This document shows, one piece after another, positions 8,901 through 47,342 of a DNA stretch of 64,000 bases. Made by a program: the position numbers and the translations under genes. Each line of letters opens with the position of its first letter. Position 1 is the first letter of the stretch. Under the pieces are notes generated by a model. It was not told the DNA's origin and did not search any database. It worked only from the letters and a program-made list of their open reading frames with translations. The stretch is from the NCBI GenBank assembly GCA_004022145.1, contig RCNU01000010.1; one strand, written 5' to 3'. This DNA is from Paecilomyces variotii (lineage: Eukaryota).

Positions 8901-9934
8901 ACATTACATTCGCGGAGGCCGCCCAAGCTGAAGCTACTCTAGCCGACGAAGAGAAGCTGTTAGAAAAGGAGATGATCAAAAATGATTTTGTTTCTTTCCA
9001 GGAATCTGTTCTCCGGCCCATGCATACCATTCTCACCGAACGCATCAACAGGGCTACTGCTGGTATTGAGGAGCTGAGGGCTAAGTTGTCCGACGCTGCG
9101 CAGTATGGGACACCGGATCAAGCGCAAGAAGAAGGCGACGGGAAGCCAGAATTGCTTGAGATGCTCACACAGTTGAAGTGGCTGTTTGAGGCCCGCGAGC
9201 AACTACACCGGGAAGTCTACGATCTCCTCTGTGACCGAAACGAGAAGTATCGAGATGTGGTATCGTTGCAATACAGACAGAGCAATAACGAAGAAAAAAT
9301 TCGTGAAACCGATTCCTTCTTCATCCAAGATGCGATGGATCGCCGCGTGCAGTATGAAACTGATACCCTCTCTCGTCTGGAGTCCTTTATGGATATTATC
9401 GAAGAGAATGTGGCGCGAGGAGTGGAGATCCAGCTCTCAGCATTTTGGGATATCGCTCCTTCGTTACTTGAACTGCTGCAGAAGTTCCCCGACGATCTGA
9501 AACGCTTGGAAATCCAGATACCAGCCAGTGAATACGAGGAGAGCCCTAGCTACCATGAGCACCCGCTGCAGTATCTCTACTCGCTGCTTACTCATGCGGA
9601 AAAATCCACATATCAGTATATAGAGTCGCAGACGAACCTTCTTTGTCTCTTACATGAAGTCAAGTCTGGTGTCATGGGCGCCAACTGCAAATTAATGGAA
9701 GCCCAACGTATCCGGCATGGCGAGGCGGAGGATGTGGTCCGGCACGAAATGCGTGAATCCCGCGCTCAAGAAGAGCGAGTTTTGATCACGGATCTGAAAG
9801 ATAAGGTCTCCACAGTAGAAGGGCAGTGGACTGAGGCATTGGGTAGTCAGATCCAAGAATTACGAGAGCGTGTGAGAGACTTGCTCATCGCTGAAGGTGG
9901 TTGGGAAGAGGTAGAGCAGTTGGACGGGGTCTGA
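5943..9934 (+). CDS. Large hypothetical protein with a Pro/Ser-rich N-terminus and a helical/coiled-coil C-terminal domain; true start is probably upstream (~5731-5850)
   Basis: The 1188-codon ORF 6368-9934 joins ORF 5943-6290 through intron ~6281-6378 (GT...CATAG). It has a PPPPY motif and an ordered C-terminal half. The 5' exon is not resolved. Confidence 0.8.
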
Positions 9935-23317: not shown

Positions 23318-23981
23318 ATGTCTGCTGAGATCTACTACCTGCCCTCGGTAAGTTGGTACCAATACGCAGAAAGAGTTACTTATCACCCCACGTTTCGCTA
23401 TCGCTGACCCAATACTTAAATCGCAGGGCTGCAACTGCGATGGTAAGTGATTTCAACAGCAAAACACAACAAGAGGGCAAGAAGAAAGAACTAGACTCGA
23501 GATCTATCATCCAACTATCCAAAACATGCATAACTAACTAACAACTGAACTTCTCACAGGAACCGGCTACACTCGCACCGACATCCAAAATGCCGCCGAT
23601 AAAGCCCTCTTTCTAGCCTCTCAGCACCAAACTCTAGGTCGCGACAAATATCCTCATGCCTACAACGACTACGAACATTTCAGCTTCAAGCACGCTCAGA
23701 AGCCCTATCTCGAATTTCCCATCGAGCGAAACGGAAAGACCTACGATGGCGGTTCTCCTGGTGCCGACCGCGTCGTGATCGGTAGTATTGCCGAGGACTA
23801 TTCCAGCGCGGTCTTTTGCGCTGTTATTACTCATGATGGGTCGACGAATAATGGATTTACGGAATGTCAGGATGACACGATGAATGTGCGGGGTAAGGGC
23901 AAGTATGAGCCCAGCGAGAGCGAGTACGACAAGAAGCATCATCATCACCACCGGAAGCTGTTAGACAGAATCGATTTGTAA
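23318..23981 (+). CDS. Fungal guanyl-specific ribonuclease (RNase T1/N1 family), no signal peptide, 3 exons, ~155 aa
   Basis: Exons 23318-23347, 23427-23442 and 23560-23981 give MSAEIYYLPSGCNCDGTGYTRTDIQNAADKAL...KYPHAYNDYE...YLEFPI...SPGADRVVIG...FCAVITHDG..NNGFTEC. The residues equivalent to RNase T1 Tyr38, His40, Glu58, Arg77 and His92 are present. Confidence 0.9.
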
Positions 23982-29737: not shown

Positions 29738-31409
29738 ATTGTCAGGATTGAAAAGAGCTCTCTATCTTGTCGTGTTGCAAGTGATGAGAAAAATCCCGAT
29801 CATGAAAGAGCATATCCCATGAAACTCAGATCGCACCCAGAAACCTCAGTCTGACAAGCCCGCAGCGGCAAAAGAGAAAAGAAAACTCGAAAATGAAAAT
29901 TAGAATGATTTTTTGTAGTGAGGCTGCAAAGCAAGGAGAAGTCCTATCAGTAAGTTTGGATGCGAGACTAGACTAATACGAGCACAACGGAGAGAGCATG
30001 GAACAAAAACCAAGCAGCATTCGCGAATTCAACAGAACATCAAGGCACTCCAGGATACAAACCGTATGCCAAATTGAACATTATACACAAGGCTAAAAGC
30101 CAGGTTGTCCTTGGAATTCTACTAGACGATAGAAGATGCTGACTTGTCCACAATGAATGTGGTTTGCTTTTTGGCAGGCAGCAAAGATAATATGTACGTG
30201 AGGGGCTGATGAGGCTGAGCGCCGAACAGCTCACAACCCGCGATCTTGTAATCTTGTTCATTGGTAGAAGTTTATCAACCCGACGATCTAGAGAATTGTA
30301 GAATTCGTAAAAAACAGAAATGCTTGGCAGCAATATTCTCAGCAAGGCGTTAATATGATTAATTCGAAATTTACGGTCGGTGTCACGTCGCATCTAGACT
30401 TGAGCATCCTCGGCCAATTAAATAGTCCTACGGGGCTATTTAGAGGTCCAATGGACCTGGCTAGAACTTCTTTTATTTTCTTTCTCTTTTTTAAGATATA
30501 TATAAGCTATGTGTGCTATAATTCCTCAGCGCGAGGCAATCAATCTATAGTCTCGAATTTATGTCCCATTTTCAATGGAGAACGTCAGGGGACACAGGGA
30601 AATTATCGTGGATATTATGGGAGCCATTTGTTTGATAATAGCAGGTCTCTGATGGTATCGAAACTGCAGCCATGTTCGATTTACGGGGTCACTTCCACAT
30701 TTCTCATTCTCCATATAAATACGTTGCTTCCATCCAGGATATCATCTGACTGTTTTCCATGTCTTCGGGGAAGCCTGAAACTTAGATGCAGTCAAATCAT
30801 CGCTTGCAACAAATGCTTCAGACATCACCGATCGTATAGACCAGGAAAGCTTCTTTGCATAATAATTAGAAGCTAAATGTGCGTTTATATATAATCTATA
30901 GCTTAGACCCAAGTAAACACCTACTCAACCAGCTAGAAAGCTCAATCCACTATTTGCTTCCGTGCCGAGGATTCACAACTTGCCTGAAAATGCTGGCTCT
31001 CTGATCTTCTCTAGTGAATTCATGAGAACAGGCTTCAGTTCAGACGAATACTCGGCCGCCGGGCGGATTCATAATCACCATTGGTGTGTTGTACGGAGGG
31101 ACCTTTTTCCAGGTCAGCTGAGGTACTTTTGACTATCTGATTACTATTAGTACCGATGTCCTACCCTTAGTTTTAAAATTTACTTGATCTCAGGGTACAG
31201 ACTCCCATGAAAAGAGATATCTCTCTTTCATCCACTTCAATGACTGATATCAACGGATCAGGCCCACTGATCCGTTTAGCCCCGAGATTCAGAACTCACA
31301 AGTCTTCAGGGGCTTGAAAGGCGCATCGTCATACCTAAACAAGATTTCACAGTCACTGTGGTCCTTCTGCAATCAACGAGACATCAGACTATCATCGAAC
31401 AAAGAGAAC

Positions 31410-32561
31410 ATGGATCCCTTTGACCGTCTCCCTTGGTTTGTGATCCGAGATATTCTCTGTCTCCTACCCGACCTCCCAACCCTGCACAGGCTTCATGATG
31501 CATCACCGGCAATAGCTGCCTTCCTTCGACATGAGAATGGACTCTTTTCCCAGATTGTGGAAACAATTATCTCCCAAGAGCGCGAGTTTGGTCTCCTGCC
31601 ACAGGTTCAGGCATTACTACGCATACTTGTCTTCATATGGTGGCGGACTTTCCCTAGCGAATCCAATAGTGAGCTAAAAAGCGAGACTAATCCGCTACCG
31701 AGTTCATACAAAGATTTCTTTGAGCATATCCGTTCCACTGTGCAAGCGACGTTGAAAGACGGCGAGTGGTTTGAACCTTGGGACCTTGGTCCTAGCTATG
31801 CCGACGCACCTCTACCGAAGTCGACACCCTCCATCATTCTCTGTCGGCTCCTCGCTTTCTCTAGCAGGTTCCGTCAAATAATACATGTATACTTTCATGA
31901 GATGATCGCCCGCTGTATGGCACTCAAGCCTGGGTATGATCCGGACGATCTCCCATTTATGGACATTAAACCCGATAAACGCTGTTCGAGACTACCTGTC
32001 AAACCACACATGCCCAGAGATATTGGACCGCCATCTTGGATTGAAGAGCAGCGATTGTTACGATGTTTTATTCGCATATTTCTATTTTTGGAGCTCCAGC
32101 ATGCGATTCGCACCCGCGGCCTCTATACTACGGAGAAAGCAGCGCTATCGGTACAAGAAGATAGCGTGGATAGCTTTTGGGACAAGATAATGGACATACC
32201 TGGTGAGAGATACCAAATGAACTCACTCATAGTATGGTTGGTTCGTGAAGCGGGGTCTGTGGACAGTATAGAGCACTGGATGATTTCTGCTTCCGTTTCA
32301 GAGACGCCAATTTACTGCTGCCCCAACTTGAGACCGCTGACACCAATCCAATTAAAGTGGCGGGAAACGAAACTGTATAAATTGGTTCAATATATTCCCT
32401 TTTGTCATCACAGCTACTATTGCATATTGCCTAATTTTCCCAATAACGGTTATCCTGAACATTCTGTCCTCTATCCACTCGGTGTCTTCTTCTGGGACGG
32501 AATTAGGGTCGAGGCTCTAGGATTTCTGCGAGAGAATCATAATCTTACCTTAGAAGCATAG
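31410..32561 (+). CDS. Hypothetical protein with an F-box-like N-terminus
   Basis: The intronless ORF begins MDPFDRLPWFVIRDILCLLPDLPTLHRLHDASP, matching the F-box-like LP.E/F...I...L pattern. Confidence 0.7.
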   Translation: MDPFDRLPWFVIRDILCLLPDLPTLHRLHDASPAIAAFLRHENGLFSQIVETIISQEREFGLLPQVQALLRILVFIWWRTFPSESNSELKSETNPLPSSYKDFFEHIRSTVQATLKDGEWFEPWDLGPSYADAPLPKSTPSIILCRLLAFSSRFRQIIHVYFHEMIARCMALKPGYDPDDLPFMDIKPDKRCSRLPVKPHMPRDIGPPSWIEEQRLLRCFIRIFLFLELQHAIRTRGLYTTEKAALSVQEDSVDSFWDKIMDIPGERYQMNSLIVWLVREAGSVDSIEHWMISASVSETPIYCCPNLRPLTPIQLKWRETKLYKLVQYIPFCHHSYYCILPNFPNNGYPEHSVLYPLGVFFWDGIRVEALGFLRENHNLTLEA

Positions 32562-32776
32562 TCTGCCCACTATTCTTCTTATTGGAAAAGAGTTGAAACT
32601 TATATCGTAATGAATTTATGCAATCTCATATGTTGGTCTCCCTCGATCATATCCTCCCATGATCCTTCTATCAAAGCCTCGCACTATGCAGACCTAGTCT
32701 GCCCATTGATGAATTTCCTTTCTAAGATGGCAGTGTCTTCGGACTTCACCATTAATACACTATAGGAGCTCCATAC

Positions 32777-33791
32777 TCAGCTTTCAGGAACAGCGTCGAT
32801 CTTCAGATAGAGTGCTGGCTGCCAATTCGCCCCGAACGTTGTAATCTTGGAGATTATTCTTCTGCCTAATTGCTGCTTGTGCTGGATTAACAGCCAGGCA
32901 ACACCGCGCACATTTGGGGTATAGAGCAACGCATTGAACTCATCACTCTGGGGGTAGAATGATCTCCACATTGAAGGATCACGTAATTGATTCCAATCGT
33001 CCCAATCATCAGCTTTTCGCAGAACCCTTCGCATGATAGTTTGCGTATCACGATTTGTAATGGACTCTTGGAAAACGTGGTTCAGGTTCTGGACGTTCCC
33101 CTGCGCCATATGTTGCCATTGAAGGAAGGTCACGTCGGACCATTTTCTACATTTCGGGTACCTATCAAGGTTGGGAGTCGCATACTCAGGGCTATGAGCA
33201 CTGTGCGAGATAATTACGCCGTCTTGGAGGTTATAGGCGCTTCCATACATAGCGCCAGTGGACTGATGAATAATTAGTATACGGGACATCAATGGATTGT
33301 ATTAAAGATTACCATACCTGATATTCCTCGCCATCAACATTAACTGGGGTATACTGCTTAATCTCGATATAAATATTCTGTGCCGAATCTATGTTCAAAG
33401 CTCCGAATGCTGTGCGGAGGGCACGGTTGATGTCGTACAGGACGCCCGGCTGTGTCTGCGGCTCCCATCCCCAGGTATTCAAATCACCGTAGTCAACCCA
33501 CGGGCTGTTAACGGGGACATCGGGCCGTATGTATTGACGAGCACCATCTTCAGTGGCTTGCATGGCACAGGAAAGAGCTGCACCATTTCGAACATATGTA
33601 TCCCAGTCAATGAGGACTTTCGGGGCCACTGTCGTGTTATTGCTGAGAGCTCTTTCCCTAAGATGGCCATTTTGTTCTTCTTTATCGACATGGACAATAG
33701 ATGATATTCGAGTAAGGGTAAAGAGAAAGGTTGCTAAGAGTAGTGCAAGGAATGATCGCCGAGGCAGATCTCTAGATAGTATTTCCATCAT
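32777..33791 (-). CDS. Uncharacterised secreted or membrane-anchored protein, paralog 1 (2 exons)
   Basis: N-terminal hydrophobic segment SFLALLLATFLFTLT and intron 33263-33317. Conserved blocks WSDVTFLQWQ, ITNRDT and ALLYTPNVRGVAWLLIQHKQQLG are shared with 35251-36271. Confidence 0.88.
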
Positions 33792-35250
33792 TTTGAAGTC
33801 GAATAGAGTCTCCTGGTGTTCAAAAAAAGAGACCAAGTATGCTTCAGCAATGAGTTCCAGTGACTGTATATCTCGAGTAGGTTTTACCCTTTATACAACG
33901 AGGGGGATGACTGCATCATACTCGAGAACAATAGGCTATGCAAGGTAGATACGCATCAGGAGATAGTACTACTGCTTTGATGTATCTCCCCGATACTAGA
34001 AGTATCAGTTCCCCGGCCGTGATACCAACCAGCCCACTCCCCGTACACACCCAATTTCGAACCCCTACTGGAACATAAGTACGATTTCATAATATCCTAT
34101 CTGATTGGACGTGATGTATCATATTACTCGTTTCGATCGACATTATTCAAAGCGGGAACTGAAGAGACACAGACATAGGACTTTAGACGCACTCGTTATA
34201 CTCTGTGCATGCTGATAAATGTCTTGTTATGTCAGGATCTAATCATTTGGTACGCATACGGATAATAATTTCTATTTCACGTACTTGGTTTTCATTACGT
34301 AGGAATCTTTATTAGCCCTGACTTAGGTCCTCGTTGGCTCTAATAAGACTCGAATTCATTGTTTTGTCAAAGAACAGAAAATGTCCCGCTGGTGCTTTTG
34401 TTCAACCTGATTCCTTAGTTCAGTAAGAGATGGCCTTCGTCTATGCTCCTTATTACCTTTACGGATAGACAGATCGTCTGGTTAGCGAAGCTAGTAGTTG
34501 CAGTTTCGAGTCAGTGCATTAAATGGTAATTATTCTGGCATACTTGTGACATATCCGGATGCGTTTCACGAGCTCGTGCAATGCACATACCATTTCTGTA
34601 AGCAGAGGTAGCTGCCATAGTCAGCACACGCAGGTAATGTCTATTTATAATCCCTTTACCAATCAAGTAAGCTACAGGGGTCTCTTAGAAAGACCGTACT
34701 TGTGCATGTACGTACTTTGTTTGTATTCATCTACCATGTTCAAGAAATCTGTTAGGGTGTGCAGGGAACAAAACATTCACGAGTGAACCTGTTGTGTCTC
34801 AGTACTTCGAAGCTATTCTGTATGTGACATGGCTCGGTTGACACCATACTGTTTCGGTAGTCAATCATCAGACATTTTCTGCAGGTGGATCGGATATGAG
34901 GAAATTTCGGAACTATTGCCGCCTCAATTGGACAGTCTGATACACTGTCTGTAAATTTATAGACAGCTTTACGCGTGTAACACCTCATTATTGCGAAGGT
35001 AATGCTGTTTGTTCACTGTTCAACTATGCGCTCCTACAGGGCCGCGCTACGGAATTGCTGGCTCATTTCGGTATACCATCTGTCGTGAGAAACTATTGAT
35101 GGAAGCCTCGGTATGTAGTTGACCTTTTTGATAGTATCTTCCGCTAGCGGAAAATTCATTCGATCACTTGAGGATCGCTCCCAGACATTAAGTAGCAGTA
35201 ACAAGAATCGCAATTCACAGGTATGCCTAAATTATGCAGCCTCTTAAGAA

Positions 35251-36271
35251 TCACGAAACTTCTTCAATCTCCAAGTAAATAGCTGCATAGCACACTTCAG
35301 TTGTTCTTTTCCCGAAAATTGTAATCTTAGAAATCCTTCTGATACCAAGTTGTGGTTTATGCTGAATCAGAAGCCATGCCAAACCCCGTATATTTGGGCT
35401 GTATAGGAGGGCTTCATACTGTTCTTGTCCTGGAAGGAATGATTTGCCTTTAGCTAGCCCGTCATACTCAGATTCGTAGTACCATTCTTCCTCCTTGTCT
35501 AGTGCCGTTGCCATGAGTTCCAGCGTATCGTCATTTGTAACTGCACTGTAAAAAACATGCTTGAGGTTGCCTATGTTCTGTCCCGCAATTTGTTGCCATT
35601 GAAGGAAGGTCACATCGGACCATCTTGCACATTTGGGGTATCGGGGTAATTTGTGATCTGCACTATCTTCTGGGCTATTCATATTTGCTACTATTATAGC
35701 ACCATCCTGGGTGTTATAGAAGTTATAGTAGCGTCCCCCAGATGGCTTTTCATAGTCAGCAAATATGAAACCAAGTACAAATACCTAAGAGTCATAATCA
35801 ACATACCGGATATTCCTGTTCGTCCACTGTTCTCGGTTGATCATGATCAAGCTTGACCATGATAAAGTTGTCAGGGTTTATGTCTATACTTGTAAGGTCC
35901 TTTTGGAATGCCTTCACGATGAAATTTTCATTTTCATCGCCACTGCTGGAACTCCATCCCCAGGCTGCCAGATCGCTATATTGCACAAATTGACTGTTGA
36001 CAGGAACGTTTTTAGGCATGTAGTGAGCAGCGCCGTCCACGGTATCATCCATAGCACATGAAAGTACATAGCCTTTCTCAATAGCATCATCCCAGTTGAT
36101 AAGAACCTTTGGGGTGACTGTGCTGTTGCGGTCGATATCTCTCGTCCAGAGAGTCTTATGCTCAGCTCTCTGAAAATGAAAAATGACAGATAAAAGAGTG
36201 AATATCAGAGCTGACAAAAGCAATACGAGGCATGGTCGCGGCCGCAGGATTATCGAAGATGTTCTGGTCAT
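35251..36271 (-). CDS. Uncharacterised secreted or membrane-anchored protein, paralog 2 (2 exons)
   Basis: Hydrophobic segment CLVLLLSALIFTLLSVIF and intron 35746-35806 at the position homologous to paralog 1. Blocks WSDVTFLQWQ, VTNDDT and ALLYSPNIRGLAWLLIQHKPQLG. Confidence 0.88.
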
Positions 36272-37523
36272 TTTCGAGGCAGATCGATTGTGGTGACTGA
36301 AGATATCGAAACAACCGATACACTGTTCGAGTGCAGTTAAATGTTTGTTGTCGGATCAGGAAAAATGATAAAGTCCTTACGGAAATGCGAACTTTATACA
36401 ATCATGCAGCCTTTCATCTGTATCAAGAATCCTCTGGCGCTACTACGCCTACAAATGTATTTCTCGAACACGCCGTAAAACTAGTTACCTACCTTGCCGC
36501 CCGAAAAGAGATACGAATGTAATCCGCACCCACACTGTTTTAGAATAAGAGCTTATTGTTACGCCTCCTTTTGCATGTCACATTCGATATGAAAAGCAAA
36601 AAGTACCGTGCTGTCATCCCTTTGATCAAACGAAAAGTCATGTTGGGATTTCGATCGACATTCTTGAGCGCTGGGTTTGAAGAGGCTGAGTGATGTAGAA
36701 CCTAGGCGGGTTCCAATGTAACTTAGCATCAGTACCTGCTAGATCATGCCGTGCTTCTGTATCATCACGTACGCCGTGGAGTTTCAATTTCTCCTTTTGA
36801 TGCTATCACATATAGCCCAATCTGTATACTTAGTCGACCAGCGCTAACCGTGTATGGCAATGGTTCGCTCCGCTCCCCCCGGCATTGTCCTTTATTGTAG
36901 AACAAAAAAAGCCAGTGGCGTTTTGTTCAAAGGATTGATCAGGGCAGGGAAAGTCTATGCTAATCATATTGTCCCCTACGACTAAACAAAATAATCATGG
37001 ATACTAGCAGAAGCGGTCCAAAGTGACCACTTTGAATGGCGATTATACTTGAGAATATGATGTATGGCATATCTTCAGAAATCATATAAGCATTCAAGAT
37101 GCGTGCTTGATTTTCTCTACATGACAGCCTAGTCGATGAAACAAACAGAAAACAATTTTAGTTATACCCATATAGTACCTAGTATAACATACGTGGCGTT
37201 GATTTATAATCTCTACTAAGCATATTGTATCTGCTACAGGGAATCCTTTGAAGGGAAGTGTCGCAAGTACGACCTATCCGCGTATATCTATAATCCAAAG
37301 AGAAATAAGACTACGACTGTCGAGAACAAAGGATAAAATACGGATCTCAGGTTTCACTAAATTTCTCGTAGTCATGTTTTGTAAGCTGCATATCAGAGCT
37401 CATGCGGTGACGACTCGGTGGCTCATGATCCAACGGTTATATCTATTCATGCCCCGATTGTAGGCTCTATTTTGACGCGCACGAACTCTCGTATATGCTT
37501 ATCAATTAGTGTGGCATAGAGTC

Positions 37524-40500
37524 ATGCTTTTTACTATCTTCACAGTTCTGCTGTGCGCCTTCCAGGCCCAGGCCAAGGCAGTATTTGCTCATTTTATGGT
37601 ATACCATTCGTTTTTAGTTTTTTTCATATTTATACAAAAGATCAGATATGATTAACACAGTTCCAGGTTACGAATACGGCTGAATATGTTTGGGACGATT
37701 TCGAAAATGACATTAAACTGGCCCAAGAAGCTCATATTGACGCGTTTGCGCTCAATATGGCAGCTGGTGATGATGCGAATACTGTTGTGCCGCTATTCTT
37801 TCAGGCAGCTGAGAGCCTCGGGTTCAAGTTGTTTTTTTCATTCGATTATGCTGGAAACGGCGCGTGGGAGATAAATGACGTGCTAGGTTATATCAAGCTA
37901 TTTGGATCAAGTCCGGCTTATTACCAATATAATGGCCAGCCGTTTGTGTCGACATTTGAAGGCCCTGCCAACGCGAAAGACTGGCTTTTGATAAAGGCGG
38001 AGACAAATTGTTTCTTCATGCCTGATTATTCTTCCCTGGGGGCCAAGCCTGCTGTGCAACTGGGTGTCGCGGACGGACTATTCAGTTGGGCAGCATGGCC
38101 TTGGGGTAATGAAGATATGAACACATACGTTGATGCTTCATACTTGCAGTATCTGGGCGACTTACCCTATATGATGCCAGCGTCACCCTGGTTCTTTACC
38201 AACTTACCTGGGTACACGAAGAATTGGTTATGGAGGCAAGTCTCCCACTCTGCTAAATCTCCAAGTCTAACTGTTGCAGAGGGGATCATCTCTGGTATGA
38301 CCGATGGCAAGAGATCCTATTCGTGAAACCGCCATTTGTGGAGATAATTTCATGGAATGACTATGGAGAATCTCACTACATCGGCCCTTTAAGAGACTAT
38401 GCGATGGACGCTTTCTCAATCGGCCTTGCTCCCTACAATTATGCCACTGACATGCCACATGATGGGTGGCGCCTATTTTTACCCTATCTGATCGACACAT
38501 ATAAAAATGGAATTGCTACGATTACAAACGAGGGCCTTATGGTTTGGCATCGCTTACAGCCCGGCAGAGCCTGTGCCACAGGTAACACCACGGGTAATAC
38601 GGCCAGCCAGTTACAGGTTAGTCCTTCCTGTCAATACATAGTGTTTACGGATCCAGCCAAATGACCTTTGCTGCAGATTGAGTTTCCCCCTTACGAAATA
38701 GTGGAAGACAGGATCTTTTATTCCGCTCTTCTCTCTTCACCGGCAACTGTCACAGTCAGCATCGGCGGCAAAAGCCAGCAGGGAACATGGCAGTGGGAAC
38801 CAGATGGCGGCATTGGCATCTACCATGGAAGCGTGCCCTTTGGAAGCAGTGTGGGAGATGTGGTAGTGACACTTTCCAGATCTGGGTCTCAAATTGCCCA
38901 AGTTAAGGGAAGTTCAATAACAACTTCTTGCAAAAACGGAATCGAGAACTGGAATGCTTGGGTTGGCAGTGATTCTGCCTCTAAGACTATCTCGGCGACC
39001 CCAAAACTTGCCCTATATGAGCAGAAATGTATTAATGGCACAGGTGCAAATAACTTCGAAGGAATTTGCAACTTCGCTTGTGAGTATGGATACTGCCCTA
39101 TTGGCGCATGTCTCTGTCAGTTACAAGGAAAGCCAAAGCCCACGCCGAAGGCGACAGGGAAGATGGGTTATCCTTTAGCTGGCGAAGATGCCAGCTATAG
39201 TGGACTCTGTGCATTTGACTGCCCCTTGGGATATTGTCCCGACAATGCCTGTGGCACAACTTCCGCACCGTTATCGACGCCGACTGTTTCTGATTTCCTG
39301 CCTCCAGCATGCGTTGCCGGAACAGGAGAGGGAAACCTTGAAGGCCTATGCAACTTCGCCTGTAATTATGGATACTGTCCAATTGCTGCTTGCAAGTGCA
39401 CAAAACAGGGAGCTCTGAACCCTTTGCCTCCAAAGAAAAACGTGATCGGCCATGTGGCTGCAGGTTTGGATGCAACTATATACGGAGGTCTCTGCGCTTT
39501 CACCTGTGAGTACGGATATTGTCCGGAGGGTGCCTGCTATGCCGTTAATGTTACTGGCTCTGGCTCTGGCCCTGGCTCCGGCATTGTCTATGTCGATCCT
39601 GTCATCTTTGTGACTCCAAGTCCAGTCATCGGTTGCTTCCCTCCGTGCACCTTGATAATACCTCCATCGACAATGCCTTCTCCGACGACAATTCACTTCC
39701 CAACTTATCATACCACCTTCTCTGTGGGCTCTTCATCATTTCAATATGTTGTCCCCTCCCCTGGTAAGTGTCTCCAGCCCGGAGGAAACTATCTCGCTAA
39801 TCAAAATGCAGTTACGACTTCCGTGATAGACTTCTTTCCTGTGCCTATTGATCCTACGCAAACGAATCCGTTCTCCTTTGCATTAACGCCGAGTTATTCT
39901 CCACTACCTCTCGTCATTAGTGCTGGAACGGCTACAACAACTCTCTATCCGCCGCCAGTCACTGCTCCATCTCAGACATCATCAAGCACGACTGCCCCAG
40001 TTTACATATCCTTGGGGACGACCGACTACGTTACAAATGGTATTACTCAAAAATTCTCTGAAGCTCAGGATATCGCACTTCGAACCCTTAAAACTCCAAC
40101 TGTATTAACAACCACGATTCCTGGGCCTACCTCAGGAACCACAACGCCCTCGCCTGTGGTCATCTGGTTCCAAAAGGGTGGCTTTTACTGGTCTCCAGTA
40201 CCTAATCCGACACCGCCACCTATCCGGATCCCAACACTGCCAAAATTTCCCCCGATTCCATCTCCAAAGTGCTTCAAGTTGTTTGACATTTTCTCGATCG
40301 ATTGTCCACCAAATAAGCACCTTCCTACCACTACGTTCGAAAGTCACAAGCCGGAGCCTACTTGCACCGGTAAAGGCTGTGGTAAGGTATGTTCTCACAA
40401 TTGCGATACAAGCACCAGCTCAGAATGCTCCGAGCGGACTGCAACAGACTACTGGGTGACATGTTCCGGTACTTCCTGCAAGACCACTATGAGTGCCACT

Positions 40501-41531
40501 ATAACCGGCTGCTCTGTTACTGGTACCGCTACTACTACTGGGAGGTACTGTCCTACTGGTATTACTCTTGATCCTAATGAGGATCAGGGGCAAGATGGCC
40601 CGGCACCCTCGAAGACAGTCATGGTCACGACGAGTATTCCCGAGGTAGCAATTGTCAGTGGTACTCCAGTCACTGTCAAAGGCGGCTCCATCACCATTGG
40701 TGGCAAACCATTTGCCATACCGGCCGTTACTGGCTCGGAAACCACCATGACTATCGGAGGTGTACCTGTTGTGGTTGTACCAGGATATACAGGTACAGTG
40801 CCATCATACGCTTACCCTACAACTCTGGCACCGGGAACAATTACCTCTACGTTCCTTACAACCGTGCATCCTACCACTATTGTCACTACTGTAACAGCTA
40901 GCATCCCTCCCTACCCGACCAAGTACAATTGTAAAGGGTCAGGTCTATGTGGCTTTTATCCTCATTTCGGAACATACTGCAAGGCAGCACCCAAGAACAT
41001 CGTGGACAGCGAAATATACGGGCAAGTAATTCATTTTCTTTTTGCTCATCTTCTATCCGACCTACATTTGCTCCCTCATAACCTACGGTTGAAATATGCG
41101 CATCCCAAAAAGAGCCAAACTAACTTGTACCTTAAAGCACAACTCATAACGACAGTAACACCGGTGTTTGCGCTGGTGCGGGTGATACTGCCAAATTTGG
41201 AGACGGTTGCGGAGTATTTGTTAAAGGAACGGGTTGTGAGATCACCGGAGCCGTATTGAGGAAGTAAGTATAACCACCAACAACCACAAGCCCACACACA
41301 TCTGCTAATGCTATCTATCCATCTCATAGAGCCGCTGATGACTTGTGGAATATTGAACGTTGCGGGGCATGTGGCAATGTTTGGCTCTCCAACGGTTGCC
41401 GTGTCATAGTTGATTTCGTCTCCCATTGCAAATCCCCGTCACCGGATACAATGGCACCACTATCATGGAATCGAACAAGCTCCGATATACTTATTGGTGT
41501 CGTGCCAAACAACTATACTATTTCTGACTGA
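37524..41531 (+). CDS. Secreted GH71 alpha-1,3-glucanase (mutanase) with Cys-rich repeats, Pro/Thr-rich linker and C-terminal KP4-like domain, 7 exons
   Basis: Signal peptide MLFTIFTVLLCAFQAQA followed by KAVFAHFMV, then HIDAFALN, FKLFFSFDYAG, FVSTFEG, PASPWFFTN, KNWLWRGD and EIISWNDYGESHY (GH71). Introns are 37599-37666, 38236-38279 (GC-AG), 38617-38676, 39764-39811, 41022-41137 (GC-AG) and 41264-41329. Confidence 0.92.
39025..39545 (+). repeat. Four Cys-rich repeats (G[IL]C.F.C..GYCP..AC) within the GH71 protein
   Basis: GICNFACEYGYCPIGAC, GLCAFDCPLGYCPDNAC, GLCNFACNYGYCPIAAC and GLCAFTCEYGYCPEGAC. Confidence 0.9.
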
Positions 41532-42999
41532 GTCATGGCGGCCAATGAAATGCTCATGATACAAACAAGGAAGACTCCATGGACTAGGGCTTAGTATAAT
41601 GGGAGACTGTCGACCTCTCTCTATCTGTTATTCTGAATTGAAAGCGCTAGTATAATTATGAAATCCAGATTTGATACGACGGTAGTGCGCAGTGAAGCTT
41701 CTTGAGATATTAGCTATCAAGGACCTAGTATTCCCCGTATTTTTACTGGCATGAAAGCCGTGGAATATTAACTGACTGAGTTGGCTGATAGCGATAAGTC
41801 GAGTAGATATCACTATATAGTATACAGTAAGATGAGGCTCTTATGAGGCGTCCGTCGGATTTTGCCAGTATAGAGATCTGAGCCAGAAAGTTCTTATAAA
41901 GAAGCTGGAAACAGATCGTCACTTGCTTACATAGCTCTAGGATCCTAACTAACTTTGTTATGAGTCAGAATAAATAGTTACATCGATCGGGATCGGGACC
42001 GGGTGCAAAGAGCGCTTCATGGCACCCCCGTCGTCGGTTATAGTTACGGCAAAAGCCATATTTCTTGTATACCGGAAAGGCACGACAGCATTGGTTTTCT
42101 TTTACATGCTCAATCTAGATCACACGCTAACATGATTATACTTTTAGAAAGCAAGGCGCCTTTTCAAGTGCATATTAATCTAACTACTGGCAACTTGGCA
42201 CATCCGATTCTCTAATTGATTGATTCCATGATCTCACTCCAGGCTTGGTTAGGCGAGGACTATCATAGTGCTTTACTGACAAAGGAGAACTCCATGCGAG
42301 GTGACAGTTAGGTATTTACCAGATGATCAAACTGTTTTGAAGATCTTAAAAAAGGTGTAGTAGTAAGATCGCACACTAACCAGCTTATAATTGGAAGATT
42401 GAATGAAACTGGATAGTGGATCAAAAGAGAAACAATGTTTACTTGAACATAGAAGGCTTCTAGCAAAAGTAGGTCCTGACCCCTGAGTAGAATCTAGACC
42501 ACGCGGAGGATTTTTCAGACCACGATGGGATCGGCACGCTAAGCTTCAGTTCCCAGTGGGACCACCGAGCTTAGCATTATTAACTTCATCTTGCCACTTA
42601 TACATGTCAATATCTGAACGAGAAGGGATATAAGGAACGATATACTCCGTAGGATTCACACCATTAACTCTTGGTATTACCAGTGCTATTCTTCCAAGCC
42701 TTTCGATGACGAGTCAAGTTGCGTAAGGATGTAACTAAATGCTCCGCTAGGTACTGTATACCGTTTGCACTTTCCCTTCTCCCATCCCTTGACCTATCCT
42801 GCATCGACTGTGATCGCTAAAAGGGGAATTTAACCTGTCAATCAAGATGTCCCGGGTTCAGCCTTGTTCATGAGTACCGTACAGCTCGGAGGTGTGCTCC
42901 AGATTGATATAAATGTTTCAACGATCAGCAGCTCTCTAGATCGTTTTCTCGATCGTCCATTATTTCACTCGTGACTGCTTCTTCTCCTGCTTGCGTTCG

Positions 43000-44637
43000 A
43001 TGAAGGTTTCCAACCTCAAATCCGGGCTTGTGCAGGCCATCCTGGTCCATGCCGCTGCCATCAATGCCTACCTTTACAACACCACTATTCAGACCAAGTA
43101 TGGCGCTGTGAAAGGCATTCCTGCACTCAATGCTACATGCTGTTCCTACCTTCCAGGTTATGAGAGCGTGACCGTCTGGAAGGGTATTCCATTTGGCGCA
43201 ACCACGGGTGGCGCGAACCGATGGAAACCTCCGCAGCCTCGTCCTGGATGGAATGGCACCCTTGTGGCCGACACCTTTGGTTCCGCGTGCCCAGCAGGTA
43301 CCTCGCCCACTGGTGCAATTGACGATGTCTACGACGAGGACTGCCTCAATCTCAACATCTGGACTTCAGCCAACTCAACCGCTGAAAAGCGGCCAGTAAT
43401 GATCTGGAGCTATCCCGCGGGTGCCAACGGCGCATGGAGCATGTTTGATGGAGGTGGCCTTGCGCTTAAAGATATTGTGGTTGTCACTTACAATTATCGG
43501 ACGGGCCCCTATGGCTGGCTTGCGTTGCCCGAGCTATGGGAAGAATCCGGCAACATCACTACGGGGAACTATGGGCTCTTGGACCAGATTGCGGCATTGA
43601 AATGGGTGCACGAGAACATCGCAGACTTTGGCGGCGACCCAAACCACATCACGACTGTTGGCCAGTCTGCTGGTAGTGCCGCTGTATACCACACTGTTAA
43701 CAGTCCTCTTGCTAAAGGGCTGATTGTCGGTGCTATTGCGGAGAGTGGAATTCGCGATCCTCATGATCCGGCGGCCACCGAGCTGGCCGAAGGCTACAAC
43801 AACATGACGACTTCTCTAAAGCTAGGAGCTGAATTGAAGTCCGTCCTGAACGTTACCACACTCGAAGAGCTACGTCAAGTCCCTGCGGAGACTATAAGCA
43901 AGTACAGCGATTTCACTTCGTTCCAGAACTGGAGAGCCACTCTGGATGGCTATGCCCTTCCTGAGACATACTGGGAAGAGCTGCAGAAAGGGCCGGCCAA
44001 TGACGTCCCACTGATTACTGGTAACACGAAGGATGAATCTGGCGCTGCATATGGCACGAATGTGACGGTATCACAGTACTTGAGCACGCTCAACTCTACG
44101 TACGGCTCCTTTGCCAGCCGCTTTTTGGAAGAATATCCGGCCGCAAACTCTACACAAGCGTCCATGAACTCCAACCTCATCGCGAGAGATACGTCTCTTG
44201 TCGGTTCCTGGAACTTTGGCAATTATTGGGCAAAGTCGGCTTCTTCACCGTTCTACACCTATTACTGGGACCACGCTCCTCCAGGTCAAGACCAAGGTGC
44301 CCATCATATGTCTGAAATCACATATGTGTTTAACAATCTCTACGGCACTGATCTCCCTTGGGAACCAGTAGACTACGAGATTGCGGAGACATTGAGCAGC
44401 TACTGGGCCAACTTTGTCAAGACGTCGAATCCCAACACAGGTGGCAGCTACCGCGGCAATGGGACTCTGGCATACTGGAGGCCAAGCACCAGTTCCAACG
44501 CGACAACCTTCCACCTTGCGCCGCCAGCCCCGATCAACAAAAACGGGCTACCTGTTGGATATGCGCAGGTCCCTGTTGCTAAGAAAAGTCACATCACGTT
44601 GTTGAATGACTTCTTCCAGAGCCGGGTGCCACTCTAA
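43000..44637 (+). CDS. Secreted type-B carboxylesterase (alpha/beta hydrolase), intronless
   Basis: Signal peptide, WKGIPFG, EDCLNLNIW, NYGLLDQIAALKWV..NIADFGGDP, nucleophile GQSAG, acid GNTKDE and catalytic His in GAHHMSEI. Confidence 0.95.
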   Translation: MKVSNLKSGLVQAILVHAAAINAYLYNTTIQTKYGAVKGIPALNATCCSYLPGYESVTVWKGIPFGATTGGANRWKPPQPRPGWNGTLVADTFGSACPAGTSPTGAIDDVYDEDCLNLNIWTSANSTAEKRPVMIWSYPAGANGAWSMFDGGGLALKDIVVVTYNYRTGPYGWLALPELWEESGNITTGNYGLLDQIAALKWVHENIADFGGDPNHITTVGQSAGSAAVYHTVNSPLAKGLIVGAIAESGIRDPHDPAATELAEGYNNMTTSLKLGAELKSVLNVTTLEELRQVPAETISKYSDFTSFQNWRATLDGYALPETYWEELQKGPANDVPLITGNTKDESGAAYGTNVTVSQYLSTLNSTYGSFASRFLEEYPAANSTQASMNSNLIARDTSLVGSWNFGNYWAKSASSPFYTYYWDHAPPGQDQGAHHMSEITYVFNNLYGTDLPWEPVDYEIAETLSSYWANFVKTSNPNTGGSYRGNGTLAYWRPSTSSNATTFHLAPPAPINKNGLPVGYAQVPVAKKSHITLLNDFFQSRVPL

Positions 44638-45641
44638 GTAAATGGCTACTCTGGAAAGCATGCTAAAAACGTGCTTGCCCTGGGCAGTCTGACATGGTAA
44701 ACTGCTATATTTGACTCACAATAGTACTCATATTATGTTCATAGTTCTATTGTCTTCAGTATTCATTGCATTCTCCCGGGTCTCTCAGCTGAGAAGAGTC
44801 ATATTCTTATATTATACCACGTGAATAGCTGATTACGCACGGAGCATGGCAGCAGGTCGCTTTAATGCACCAAAACTCAGACTTATCTATCCGAACTTTC
44901 TCCGGATTTGATATGAAATGTATAAGATCAGAAAGTCAACTACGAACGCTTAATGCTATATTAAGACCGGGTAACAGATCCATACTTCTAGTTAAGTGTT
45001 ACATATTAATAATAAGATTAACTATAAGCTGATTTAAGCTCTTTTCAACCCATGTCTATCCCGCTAAAACAATTATCTTTGATACTAATGCAGGGGACCG
45101 AATAATTAGTCCCGCATGATCTGTAAGTATCCTTGCCCGTTCGTGATATGTAGATGACGCGGCGTTATAGCTTTTGACTGGCAATTTCACTCATGAATTC
45201 ATGCCTCTATGAGAATGCTAAAAATGGCAAGGTAGCGCGAGCCGTGAATAGTCGGTCACCGGCCCGGATTCTGCAATAGATCTGCAAACAATTTGTATTT
45301 ATCTAGGTCCGCGTGGGTCTTAGCAACGAACGTATTGCCCCCACAGTCAAGCCAGGGCACCCGGCACAGCCATATGGGCGACGCGGAGAATGAAACTTGT
45401 AGTCAACAGGGGAGTCCCGATTATTCTTGTGTCCTTCATATGATTATCTAGGTGGGGAGGATCGAGAGTCATGGGTTTAGCTCTTGTGCTTGCAACGTCA
45501 TCACCCTCTTTTGATAGAGACCTCTATCTAGGGGAAACACGGGTTAAAGGAGTTATAAATGTCAGCGTCTCCCGTCTCTTCGGTGGCACGTTCTTGAGGT
45601 CTTGAGTGTGCCAATTACCTGTATGTAGTTGGTCGTTCACC

Positions 45642-47342
45642 ATGATCATTCTCGGTCTTCTCTGGCTCAGCCTTTTTAGGGCTGAAGCGGCATTGAGCAA
45701 AAAGTCAACAACAAGCTCTTCCCTCTCAGCTGCGTCACCAACGGTTTCTATCCAGCACTATGGAACTATTCGCGGCGGTCGTTCAGAATACATAGATACG
45801 GTCTATAGCTTCAAGAACATTCCCTATGGAGGCGCCCCGACTGGGGCGGAGAGATGGAAGCATCCGCCGCACCCGACTCCCTGGATAGGAATTCGTGATG
45901 CTACAGCTTTTGGTCCTCCCTGTCCGCAGCCAGGTGTCAGCAATTATAGTGAAGATTGTCTGAGACTCAATGTCTGGACTCCTGAAAACGCAACATTCAA
46001 CGATGTCACGAACAGCACAGGACAAGCTGGGGTTGTGCCGTCGAAGACCAATAGCAAGTACCCCGTATACGTGTGGATCCATGGCGGACGCTTTACCGGC
46101 GGATCTTCCAGTGATCCTCTCTATGATGGATCTGGACTTGCGAAAAAGGGAGTCGTGGTTGTCAGTATGAATTACCGTCTCGGTGCTCTGGGATTCCTGG
46201 CCCATCCAGAACTGAGTGCCAACTCCTCCAGTGGTACTTCTGGCAACTATGGGCTGGTGGATCAACAAGCTGCTTTCCACTGGACATATGAGAACATCGC
46301 ATCCTTTGGTGGTGACCCGTCTCAGATCACCATTGGGGGTCAATCAGCTGGTGCAGCATCAGTTCTCGACCATGTCAACAGTGACCTAGCCGCGGGCCTC
46401 TTCAACCAAGTGATTGCAGAAAGCGGAGCAACCTATCCCTCTAATCCGCTCATCGGGAGTCTGGCACAGAGTTATCGCCATTTACCGGAGGCTGAACAAC
46501 AAGGTGCAAGTTTTTTGAAAAGCCTTAACATCAGCTCCATTGCGGAAGCGCGAGCGGCTCCTGTTGAGCTGCTTTTGGCGGGTAGTTCCCTGAACGACAA
46601 CACATATGATGACACAGTCTTCCAAAACGATTCGGTATATATGGAACCGCCGCTCTTTCGCCCAGTTCTCGATGGCTACGTCCTTCCTGCCACTTATGAA
46701 GAGATGCTCCGACGAGGGAACCATTCCATTGTTCCTGTCCTGACTGGAGTGAATAAGGACGAAAATGGGGCGTCACCCAACCCAGGTCTCGACGTTAGGA
46801 ATTACACCTCATTACACACTGAGGAATTCGGAAGCGTCGGTTTGGCCAACGAGTTCTTTAAACTATACCCAGCAGGAGCAAACTCCACCACTGCTGATGA
46901 GGCCAGTAACGCTTTCTATCGAGACCAGTCTCGAGTGTCGACTTGTCTTTGGGCTAATGAATATGTTGCTGGCTCTTTGCTGAACACATCCGGTAACGGT
47001 ACATATTCGACATATACATACTACTGGACCCATGCCCCTCCAGGCCAAGACCAAGGCGCATATCATATGAGCGAGATCAACTACGCGTTTAACAATCTCT
47101 ATGCCACAGAGAGACCGTGGACGCAGAAGGATTACAAGATTGCTAACATCATGTCTGATTATTGGGTCAACTACATACGAACTGGGAATCCCAATGGCAA
47201 GGGACTTCCATATTGGCCTCGGAACTCTGTCAATAGTTCTATGATCATGGAGCTAGGAGATGCGTGGGGTAGAAGGCCTATCGCGAGTAAGGAAAGGATC
47301 TCTTTCATCCGTGACTGGTTCTCAAAGTGGCCGGCCTATTAA
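45642..47342 (+). CDS. Secreted type-B carboxylesterase, paralog of 43000-44637, intronless
   Basis: Signal peptide MIILGLLWLSLFRAEA, SEDCLRLNVW, WIHGG, GQSAG, GVNKDE and YYWTHAPPGQDQGAYHMSEI. Confidence 0.95.
   Translation: MIILGLLWLSLFRAEAALSKKSTTSSSLSAASPTVSIQHYGTIRGGRSEYIDTVYSFKNIPYGGAPTGAERWKHPPHPTPWIGIRDATAFGPPCPQPGVSNYSEDCLRLNVWTPENATFNDVTNSTGQAGVVPSKTNSKYPVYVWIHGGRFTGGSSSDPLYDGSGLAKKGVVVVSMNYRLGALGFLAHPELSANSSSGTSGNYGLVDQQAAFHWTYENIASFGGDPSQITIGGQSAGAASVLDHVNSDLAAGLFNQVIAESGATYPSNPLIGSLAQSYRHLPEAEQQGASFLKSLNISSIAEARAAPVELLLAGSSLNDNTYDDTVFQNDSVYMEPPLFRPVLDGYVLPATYEEMLRRGNHSIVPVLTGVNKDENGASPNPGLDVRNYTSLHTEEFGSVGLANEFFKLYPAGANSTTADEASNAFYRDQSRVSTCLWANEYVAGSLLNTSGNGTYSTYTYYWTHAPPGQDQGAYHMSEINYAFNNLYATERPWTQKDYKIANIMSDYWVNYIRTGNPNGKGLPYWPRNSVNSSMIMELGDAWGRRPIASKERISFIRDWFSKWPAY

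Follow-up and report, generated by a model that had tools for sequence, protein, structure and literature searches.

A putative modular GH71 glucanase carrier with an MU117 tail beside a tandem gene pair in Paecilomyces variotii

The stretch of Paecilomyces variotii DNA analyzed here (the window; 64,000 nucleotides of contig RCNU01000010.1, assembly GCA_004022145.1) carries three genes at positions 32777-41531 according to our gene models, namely one GH71 gene and two neighbors. A preliminary description made from the letters of the window had given coordinates for all three genes, and these were borne out by the models. The divergent orientation of the GH71 gene and neighbor 2 across about 1.25 kb was likewise recovered, with an ATG-to-ATG distance of 1252 bp. 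Sampled words of the stretch were 99-100% present in 6/6 runs with the same species label that are likely DNA runs, one of which may be the source sample. The gene models and associated features are:

32777..33791, minus strand: neighbor 1, exons 33318-33791 and 32777-33262, 319 aa (splice model)
34131..34166: 36-nt upstream element (repeat D2), present again at 36649-36684 with 78% identity and a spacing of 2518
35251..36271, minus strand: neighbor 2, exons 35807-36271 and 35251-35745, 319 aa (splice model)
36272..37523: divergent intergenic region of 1252 bp between neighbor 2 and the GH71 gene (gene models)
37524..41531, plus strand: GH71-CBM24-stalk-MU117 gene of 7 exons (37524-37598, 37667-38235, 38280-38616, 38677-39763, 39812-41021, 41138-41263 and 41330-41531 with stop), 1201 aa, translation P0001
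38236..38279, plus strand: GC-AG intron of 44 nt, demanded by the reading frame and the identity to P0001
41022..41137, plus strand: GC-AG intron of 116 nt, with an RNA contig joint at 41020/41137 and one letter of play

The exon model of the GH71 gene translates into a protein letter-identical to P0001, a P. variotii GH71-domain protein of 1201 aa. A spliced contig in RNA run X4 (record 28) confirms the three 3' introns and runs to 41650. The contig spans the stalk, the MU117 domain and the 3'UTR, joining stalk to MU117. At the neighbors, X4 provides just two low-depth contigs of 151 nt touching gene edges, and the contigs of this run cannot rank genes by expression. A local gene at the X4 depth peak of 41827-42227 was considered and rejected; the contigs match only 41981-42038 and diverge on both sides. 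Runs X1-X3 are food-fermentation metatranscriptomes with contigs over genes, introns and intergenic DNA alike and no splice joints. They are uninformative on expression. Inspection of open reading frames (ORFs) recovered no additional ORF with a leader in the divergent intergenic region and none with a start codon and leader within 41532 to 42940, 3' of the GH71 gene. The search for a further small secreted gene adjoining the GH71 gene found none, and there are no tRNAs within 30000-45000. GH18 or LysM domains are absent among the 41 ORFs of the window, and the GH71 protein is the carrier candidate of the locus.

The GH71 protein is composed of five consecutive parts, all on the plus strand:

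37524..37574, plus strand: signal-peptide-like leader, residues 1-17, hydrophobic and ending in AQA (judged by eye)
37581..38901, plus strand: GH71 catalytic domain, residues 20-402 (Pfam PF03659, 466 bits)
39013..39570, plus strand: four Cys-rich repeats with a 47-aa period, residues 457-620, CBM24-type by source names
39571..40827, plus strand: conserved stalk containing Ser/Thr/Pro and Cys, ~400 aa, residues 626-1028
40924..41429, plus strand: MU117 domain at the C-terminus, residues 1061-1168, interrupted by two introns (PF15474)

The N-terminus, MLFTIFTVLLCAFQAQA, resembles a signal peptide by eye. The catalytic domain far exceeds the curated Pfam cut-off for PF03659 of 34 bits. The catalytic pair D242/E245 (P0001 numbering) is intact within the motif WNDYGES at 38359-38370, and the motif is identical in the alignment to PDB 9fnf (E 4.5e-56). 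In AnGH71C, D265 is described as the general base and E268 as the general acid, with mutants of GH71 catalytic residues reported to lose activity 6142- and 15427-fold (PMC12394665). Regular expression matches to the Cys-rich repeats start at residues 457, 504, 551 and 599, and the same motif is found in 118/120 GH71 hits. The repeats match no Pfam model. The CBM24 assignment stems from the source names "GH71 and CBM24" carried by relatives such as P0024 (649 aa), which consists of GH71 and such repeats alone. The stalk is less widespread, with phmmer matches to residues 641-1020 in 16/121 sequences, and no family covers it in the Pfam scan. Leader, catalytic domain and four repeats together uphold the secreted alpha-1,3-glucanase with Cys-rich repeats of the preliminary description.

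The MU117 match covers profile positions 1-105 of 105 at 55.1 bits (E 1.5e-14; 49-55 bits across scans), above the Pfam cut-off of 30.4 bits. A co-linear match to Kp4 (PF09044) remains below threshold (E 0.14, 12.7 bits against a cut-off of 27.8). The tail had been called a KP4-like toxin domain. This holds insofar as the domain is small, Cys-rich and a member of the KP4 structural superfamily by literature, but not as a Pfam Kp4 domain. In a 2025 paper, kcl38-A, a representative with PF15474, is assigned to structural Group 3 of the KP4 proteins, a group established by clustering of predicted structures and described there as of unknown function, while two members of other KP4 groups are reported to inhibit fungal growth (PMC12382754). 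Our own AlphaFold model of the tail was built from a 3-sequence alignment and is unusable for fold comparison (pLDDT 40.9). The predicted placement of the tail in the KP4 fold has PMC12382754 as its single source. A word-indexed homologue search with the tail retrieved a single relative, P0126. The PDB sequence search with the tail returned no match, and the ESM Atlas returned no usable match for the tails of P0001 or P0003. The sequence contains no dibasic processing site between stalk and tail and so gives no indication that the head is released. Our literature search found no paper on a GH71-MU117 or GH71-KP4 fusion.

Relatives of the GH71 protein differ most strikingly at their C-termini. 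The Aspergillus alliaceus orthologue P0003 is 64% identical to P0001 over residues 1-1028 and shows no alignment beyond. The tails of nine stalk-bearing relatives comprise MU117, a doubled CWxKC..PWCW module and three unrelated tails; three tail classes are represented by a single gene prediction each, with mis-annotation possible. The doubled module occurs in A. alliaceus, A. flavus and A. oryzae at 44% mutual identity. LysM14_C occupies the position of MU117 in an A. filifer relative, and A. fumigatus relatives carry an M35 protease and a GDSL lipase. The tail of P0063 has a weak fungal-lectin match (PF18647, E 5.6e-4). Among the 59 GH71 hits of at least 900 aa, the last 170 aa fall into 27 unrelated clusters including 19 singletons, a count that pools paralogous GH71 subfamilies. 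The preliminary description had proposed a test for exchange of C-terminal domains among GH71 orthologues, and both the break after residue 1028 between P0001 and P0003 and the 27 clusters among 59 proteins give a positive answer. Because orthologues share enzyme, repeats and stalk but differ in their end modules, the chassis acts in the manner of a carrier whose heads can be exchanged.

The two neighbors are paralogues with 44% identity and an N-terminal hydrophobic helix each, confirming the pair with hydrophobic leaders proposed earlier. The best representative for neighbor 2 is P0133 (81% identity). Three P. variotii proteins of 319 aa (P0121-P0123) share 85-89% identity with neighbor 1. 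Between strains, neighbor 1 varies to an unusual degree, and residues 223-256 form a surface hot spot of this variation; such polymorphism would suit a conflict gene. Neither protein is an orphan as had been suggested; the pair belongs to a family of 1132 representative clusters at E<=0.001. The family includes a Dothideomycete, and one protein has up to seven copies. No Pfam family is common to more than one of 79 members, no acetyltransferase family is matched at E<=1, and 0/47 long members carry a fused Pfam domain. PDB sequence and profile searches with the family gave chance-level matches only and no GNAT, and a motif scan of prokaryotic genomes with one pattern found nothing. Our literature search recovered no paper describing the family or its function.

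The structural model of the neighbor is confident, and the top matches to residues ~99-317 are nearly all GNAT or GNAT-like. The best match is 2arh_A (Z 6.0, rmsd 4.1, 136 residues aligned), with four chains at Z>=5 and none at Z>=8. Foldseek gave a best E of 0.01 and nothing at E<=0.001. The Q/RxxGxG/A motif was not seen in the loop preceding the helix at residues 199-211. Ser200, Asp201 and His286 are near-invariant in the family. The neighbors are a tandem pair of a very large unnamed fungal family, secreted or membrane-anchored, with a predicted alpha/beta fold that is weakly GNAT-like. The 36-nt element lies ~340-410 nt upstream of the ATG of each neighbor. The spacing of this repeat (2518) together with the spacing of the coding direct repeat D1 (2480) indicates a tandem duplication unit of ~2.5 kb.

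Linkage of the neighbor family to GH71 was assessed in 18 related metagenomic loci on short contigs of 97.5 kb in total, several of which are near-duplicates. At least two tandem copies are present in 11/18 loci and GH71 in 0/18. None of the 57 flanking ORFs encodes GH71, GH18, LysM, Kp4 or MU117. The flanks are heterogeneous and include DNA ligase, ferric reductase, GH62, thioredoxin and methyltransferase genes. The expected linkage of homologues to GH71, GH18 or LysM genes was hence not recovered in these loci. The proposed role of the pair as cargo or self-protection factors is likewise not supported, given the loci without GH71, the lack of fusions among 47 long members and the secretory leaders. 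The position of the neighbors beside the GH71 gene is quite probably coincidental, and a three-gene delivery locus is not supported.

We suggest that the locus is best explained by a modular secreted GH71-MU117 carrier with exchangeable heads next to an unlinked tandem neighbor pair, with a probability of roughly 60%. Such a carrier might be exported via its leader and bind alpha-1,3-glucan through its repeats, as suggested by the CBM24 naming. The intact catalytic pair would permit a local cut of the wall polymer, and the terminal module might then be displayed to the bound cell at its wall or membrane. A glucanase-toxin fusion is plausible and has published parallels. An antifungal or otherwise antagonistic effector function of the head is a more tentative proposal, for which we consider the odds to be somewhat below even. 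GH71 enzymes of A. nidulans are reported to cut wall alpha-1,3-glucan, but not from outside on intact cells (PMC12394665), which weakens the idea that the enzyme opens a competitor's wall. Of the antagonism module originally envisaged, the glucanase fused to a KP4-superfamily domain and the exchangeable tails are supported, while the role of the neighbor pair is not.

The GH71 protein could instead be a self-directed enzyme for wall remodeling or autolysis in development or starvation, with stalk and tails serving to anchor or bind in a lectin-like manner. We regard this as unlikely overall, yet several observations fit. Among GH71 enzymes, Agn2 of S. pombe and MutA of A. nidulans have developmental roles. 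According to Pfam, the name MU117 comes from an S. pombe gene up-regulated in meiosis. The weak lectin match of the P0063 tail, the absence of a processing site before the tail and the inactivity of A. nidulans enzymes from outside intact cells also fit a protein that acts on the fungus's own wall. However, the tails are small, Cys-rich and mutually unrelated, a pattern characteristic of effectors or toxin modules and not of a single conserved anchor, and other relatives carry a protease and a lipase. The structural grouping of MU117 with KP4 proteins, including the growth-inhibiting members of other groups (PMC12382754), also speaks against a self-directed role.

Two further explanations give the neighbors a part in antagonism. 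All three genes could form a single module, with the pair either delivered by the glucanase as cargo or acting as self-protection factors. The pair is indeed arranged head-to-head with the GH71 gene over a shared region of 1252 bp, both neighbors have secretory leaders, and neighbor 1 is strongly polymorphic among strains with its surface hot spot. At one A. flavus locus, a toxin candidate is reported to adjoin GH71 (Heneghan, Salzberg and Wolfe, bioRxiv 10.1101/2024.10.25.620242). A single module is very improbable nonetheless, given that related loci have heterogeneous flanks without GH71, that tandem copies are the norm in the family, with up to seven in one protein, and that long members show no domain fusions. 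The duplication also brought its own upstream element, and known zymocin immunity proteins are described as not secreted (bioRxiv 10.1101/2024.10.25.620242). The neighbors could also be divergent zymocin-type gamma-toxins, i.e., anticodon nucleases, with the GH71 protein in the place of the chitinase carrier. Secreted proteins beside a wall hydrolase match the candidate criterion given in the preprint (bioRxiv 10.1101/2024.10.25.620242), and a Glu could fall near mature position 8 in both neighbors depending on the leader cut. Yet the first 60 residues lack conservation and are disordered in the model, and the 24 invariant columns of nine close family members contain no Glu or Cys corresponding to Glu-8 and the C-terminal Cys of gamma-toxins. 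In size, the family far exceeds the 50 candidates reported, and it has a member in the Dothideomycetes, a class for which no clusters are reported (bioRxiv 10.1101/2024.10.25.620242). With fold matches that are GNAT-like, a gamma-toxin identity is extremely unlikely.

If the heads are effectors, GH71-CBM24 proteins would add to the zymocin and C-II chitinase systems, which target chitin, a second carbohydrate-targeted carrier of fungal killer modules, this one aimed at alpha-1,3-glucan. This polymer shields many pathogenic and food-spoilage molds. The tails would then supply a set of small domains as antifungal candidates, together with a natural targeting scaffold. A bolder and rather improbable extension sees the GH71-CBM24 enzymes of Ascomycota as eukaryotic equivalents of the polymorphic toxins of bacteria, with a glucan-seeking chassis and dozens of exchangeable heads used against alpha-1,3-glucan-walled fungi. 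The heads could include the KP4-like MU117, LysM14_C, doubled Cys modules, lectin-like modules and the protease with lipase. In its boldest form, the hypervariable secreted neighbors could be strain-specific partners of the weapon. Independent of these readings, the neighbor family combines over 1100 sequence clusters and a confident predicted structure with no Pfam model and offers a well-defined subject for structural and biochemical studies.

Characterized GH71 alpha-1,3-glucanases (A. nidulans AnGH71B/C, PDB 9fnf; S. pombe Agn1, PDB 8yfh) align with residues 17-428 over the catalytic domain and beta-sandwich, and the catalytic Asp and Glu are conserved. These enzymes have ~400-430 aa, whereas the P. 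variotii protein has ~770 aa more in repeats, stalk and tail. Like Ustilago maydis virus KP4 and fungal KP4-like proteins (PF09044), MU117 is a small secreted disulphide-rich domain, and it joins them by predicted structure (PMC12382754) and a weak co-linear profile match. In contrast to a free KP4 protein, MU117 makes up the final 9% of an enzyme of 1201 aa, and its structural group has no known activity. The neighbor family is weakly alike GNAT-fold acyltransferases in fold, without a Pfam or PDB sequence match, and differs from them by its secretory leaders.

Nuclear zymocin-like clusters contain C-II GH18 chitinases, some of which are reported to end in Hce2 (bioRxiv 10.1101/2024.10.25.620242), a domain described as KP4-fold (PMC12382754). 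Such chitinases and the GH71 protein each combine a secreted wall glycanase, repeats that bind or would bind carbohydrate and a small Cys-rich end domain assigned to the KP4 superfamily in PMC12382754. The C-II GH18-Hce2 clusters sit in variable, movable loci, and the GH71 locus may be of this kind too. The P. variotii enzyme differs in being GH71, predicted to act on alpha-1,3-glucan, rather than GH18, in its CBM24-type modules rather than LysM or CBM18, and in its MU117 rather than Hce2 tail. Unlike in zymocin-like clusters, no gamma-toxin or LysM-only homologue was found near the GH71 gene. For bacterial polymorphic toxins, the nearest eukaryotic counterpart named in the cited account is fungal killer plasmids and not wall hydrolases (Zhang et al. 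2012, PMC3482391). P. variotii is a eukaryote in which export would take the general secretory route, the GH71 heads are putative toxins, and downstream of the gene no candidate for a cognate immunity gene was found (no ORF with start codon and leader in 41532-42940). What the GH71 proteins share with the bacterial systems is a conserved N-terminal targeting part followed by unrelated, exchangeable C-terminal modules, with homology breaking sharply at the junction as between P0001 and P0003.

The gene models rest on an ORF listing and a three-frame reading of 31-43.5 kb, across which intron-split fungal genes are present. With the largest GH71 exon as query, a homologue search retrieved P0001, a 1201-aa database protein labelled as a Paecilomyces variotii GH71-domain protein, and a seven-exon model translates to P0001 exactly. 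GC-AG boundaries occur in two of its six introns.

37524-41531, plus strand: GH71 gene, seven exons
38236-38279, plus strand: GC-AG intron of the GH71 gene, donor GCAAGT
39764-39811, plus strand: 48-nt intron of the GH71 gene
41022-41137, plus strand: GC-AG intron of the GH71 gene, donor GCAAGT, backed by an RNA contig

In X4, a sequencing run with a P. variotii label, a 1760-nt contig extends to 41650 and has splice joints at 39762/39811, 41020/41137 and 41263/41330. The run is taken as RNA because of these splice joints, its own record merely guessing so. One spliced contig thus places the stalk, the C-terminal domain and the 3'UTR on a single mature mRNA, and the fusion therefore does not stem from faulty annotation. 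The glucanase fusion reported in the preliminary description, whose tail probably belongs to the KP4 superfamily, is a genuine, expressed gene product with its catalytic pair preserved, and the limits set there for the locus, 32777 and 41531, fall on its two outer stop codons. The protein (P0001 residues) is arranged as follows.

20-402: GH71 domain (Pfam, 466 bits)
C-terminal to the beta-sandwich: four Cys-rich repeats of ~47 aa each
626-1028: Ser/Thr/Pro-rich stalk with conserved cysteines (phmmer)
1061-1168: MU117 (PF15474; Pfam, entire 105-position profile covered)

The GH71 domain aligns to the solved A. nidulans 9fnf (E 4.5e-56) and S. pombe 8yfh structures with the motif WNDYGES kept. 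In the accessible part of PMC12394665, the Asp of this motif is the general base and the Glu the general acid, and their mutants lose 6142-fold and 15427-fold activity; the equivalents in P0001 are D242 and E245. The Cys-repeat motif is found in 118 of the 120 GH71 matches listed. Proteins made of GH71 and Cys repeats alone are named 'GH71 and CBM24' at source, and by these labels the repeats are putative binding modules of CBM24 type. No Pfam family was found for stalk residues 626-1028, which have counterparts in 16 of 121 sequences by phmmer. In Colletotrichum, the 610-aa protein P0126, which lacks GH71, has a weaker stalk copy (26% over 146 aa) ahead of its MU117 domain.

Against a cut-off of 30.4, the MU117 match reaches 49 bits when the full protein is searched and 55 bits for the tail alone. 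Describing this tail as KP4-like, as was done initially, would hold at the level of the superfamily and fails for Pfam Kp4 membership, where the cut-off is 27.8 and the co-linear match reaches 12.7 bits. Superfamily placement is probable from the literature: among predicted fungal KP4-like structures, the PF15474-bearing representative of cluster kcl38-A belongs to structural Group 3, and no function is known for Group 3 or Group 4, according to the sections of PMC12382754 at hand. A word-indexed search returned one relative of the tail, and the model predicted from a three-sequence alignment was unusable, at a pLDDT of 40.9.

The C-terminus appears to be the exchangeable part of the protein. 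P0001 and P0003 of A. alliaceus share 64% identity over residues 1-1028 and do not align beyond residue 1028. Nine stalk-bearing relatives with tails of at least 60 aa were sorted into classes, listed here with further relatives.

MU117: P0001, P0095 (partial), and P0002, interpreted as P0001's gene in a mis-spliced prediction
Doubled CWxKC..PWCW module: A. alliaceus versus A. flavus and A. oryzae, 44% identity
Unrelated tail: Stromatinia cepivora
Unrelated tail with a weak lectin match: Penicillium egyptiacum
Further unrelated tail: P0020 of Sclerotinia nivalis, outside the nine, stalk match shorter
LysM14_C, 1061-1179: a more distant A. filifer relative
M35 peptidase and GDSL lipase: more distant A. 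fumigatus relatives

Two more predictions stop at the stalk and carry no tail. The last 170 residues of 59 matches of at least 900 aa form 27 clusters, including 19 singletons, in a set that mixes paralogous subfamilies and in which the 3' ends of single predictions are possibly wrong. RNA confirms the MU117 tail, and the doubled Cys module was annotated independently in three species, which confirms it too. The GH71 protein belongs to a clade with exchanged C-terminal modules, and the suggested check on whether GH71 orthologues carry interchangeable C-termini has a positive outcome in the break at residue 1028 and the several tail classes.

An antagonistic function of the GH71 protein is plausible (probability about 0.4), and we infer a possible toxin activity for its tail. 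A self-directed role in the cell wall is a serious, if rather unlikely, rival. The GH71 partner domains reported in the accessible part of PMC12394665 are CBM24, CBM96, GH18, GT4 and a DUF, which are not toxin-like. Among genes with excess non-synonymous variation, the available part of PMC5324198 includes a Mug117-domain protein of F. graminearum (884 aa), which has a 'Yes' in a column taken to mean secreted.

The two minus-strand genes beside the GH71 gene were initially seen as orphans completing a three-gene delivery locus.

32777-33791, minus strand: neighbour 1, one intron, 319 aa
35251-36271, minus strand: neighbour 2, one intron, 319 aa

They are 44% identical and sit in a ~2.5 kb tandem duplication that copied a 36-nt upstream element along. 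P0121, a P. variotii protein of 319 aa, shares 89% identity with neighbour 1 and was the query of an exhaustive phmmer search of 1.84 billion representatives. This search dispels the orphan status of the pair, with 1132 relatives at E<=0.001, 355 at E<=1e-10 and 22 at E<=1e-30. Among these are several long proteins with 2-7 domain copies. One, P0127 (2213 aa), has seven tandem copies, a clear signal peptide and dibasic sites (RR/KR) in several inter-copy linkers; this may reflect a polyprotein that is processed, or else the annotator's merging of tandem genes. No Pfam family was found at E<=0.001 in any of 47 long members, nor one common to more than one of 79 single-copy members at E<=1. A family model from the 79-sequence alignment (pLDDT 90.7, pTM 0.80) predicts the following.

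Residues 11-30: hydrophobic N-terminal helix
Between helix and domain: disordered linker, one N-glycosylation sequon in each neighbour
Residues 61-319: alpha/beta domain

Foldseek gave no match at E<=0.001, its weak top rows being nearly all GNAT acetyltransferases. With an exhaustive structural aligner, 2arh_A came first (Z 6.0, rmsd 4.1, 136 residues aligned), followed mainly by GNAT-like domains; four chains reached Z>=5 and none Z>=8, scores that the tool itself counts as background. The predicted fold might be called weakly GNAT-like. Near-invariant positions include Ser200, Asp201 and His286, and no CoA-binding motif was seen. Three other P. variotii proteins share 85-89% identity with neighbour 1, and 13-15 of the differences between strains are concentrated in the 34 residues 223-256. 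This hot spot lies within 32777-33262 and falls on a helix-loop-helix predicted with high confidence. The variability, which contrasts with a GH71 protein identical to a database entry, would fit diversifying selection.

Linkage to GH71 was sampled in metagenomic contigs, where a pattern scan confirmed 18 family loci (97.5 kb total), of which several recur as near-duplicates in sister samples; the shortness of the contigs makes this a weak test. None of the 18 had a GH71 match. At least two family copies occur in 11 of 18, and the 57 flanking ORFs of the six longest loci include DNA ligase, an ERG4-like protein, ankyrin, ferric reductase, GH62, Vma22, thioredoxin and methyltransferase, with no GH71, GH18, LysM, Kp4 or MU117. 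Tandem copies are therefore a family habit in heterogeneous surroundings. These loci point away from a conserved module and give no support to adjacency with GH71, GH18 or LysM genes. The pair is most likely an unrelated tandem duplicate from a large unnamed secreted family, and a three-gene delivery locus is very improbable.

Other features of the window were recorded alongside. Upstream, an open frame of 1189 aa (6365-9934, plus strand) has no Pfam family, and an ORF at 23538-23978 (plus strand), ~9 kb from the locus, matches Pfam Ribonuclease (PF00545, RNase T1/N1 type; E 3.6e-20) and may be another candidate secreted nuclease. Beside neighbour 1, a 383-aa ORF without a Pfam family (31410-32561, plus strand) is covered by a 1194-nt contig, the deepest in run X4; the ORF's 3' end and downstream spacer differ by ~3% from the strain in X1, a food-fermentation metatranscriptome. 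An X1 contig ends at 33828 in a plus-strand run of 19 A, just upstream of the opposite-strand start codon of neighbour 1, and may reflect internal priming or the end of a transcript that is antisense or read-through. In four of four runs, a contig matches no more than 41981-42038 (58 nt) and goes on at either side with the same unrelated sequence (loose ends of ~255 nt). This stretch, in which no tRNA was found, is a short element common to another, highly covered sequence elsewhere. Two tandem carboxylesterase (PF00135) genes (42940-44637 and 45606-47342, plus strand) follow directly downstream of the GH71 gene, the first at high depth in X4.

Nuclear zymocin-like clusters of filamentous fungi combine a C-II GH18 chitinase with a small secreted gamma-toxin and, in some, a non-secreted immunity protein, as described in the available part of 10.1101/2024.10.25.620242. 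Among the 41 window ORFs there is no GH18 or LysM gene, and no further small ORF was found flanking the GH71 gene. The neighbours also differ from gamma-toxins, as nine close family members share no invariant Glu or Cys and their N-terminal region is unconserved and predicted to be disordered. The same portion of that source reports the clusters as absent from Dothideomycetes, whereas one named neighbour-family member is a Dothideomycete. It also describes some cluster chitinases that end in Hce2, a domain of KP4 fold (PMC12382754, in part), and an A. flavus locus where a toxin candidate adjoins a GH71 gene and a chitinase is absent nearby. GH71 and GH18/LysM are among Starship cargo in A. fumigatus, according to the accessible part of PMC12153272. 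No description of a glucanase with a KP4-superfamily tail was found in the literature searched, and the combination of GH71 with such a tail represents a fresh version of the known theme of a wall hydrolase plus a killer-type domain.
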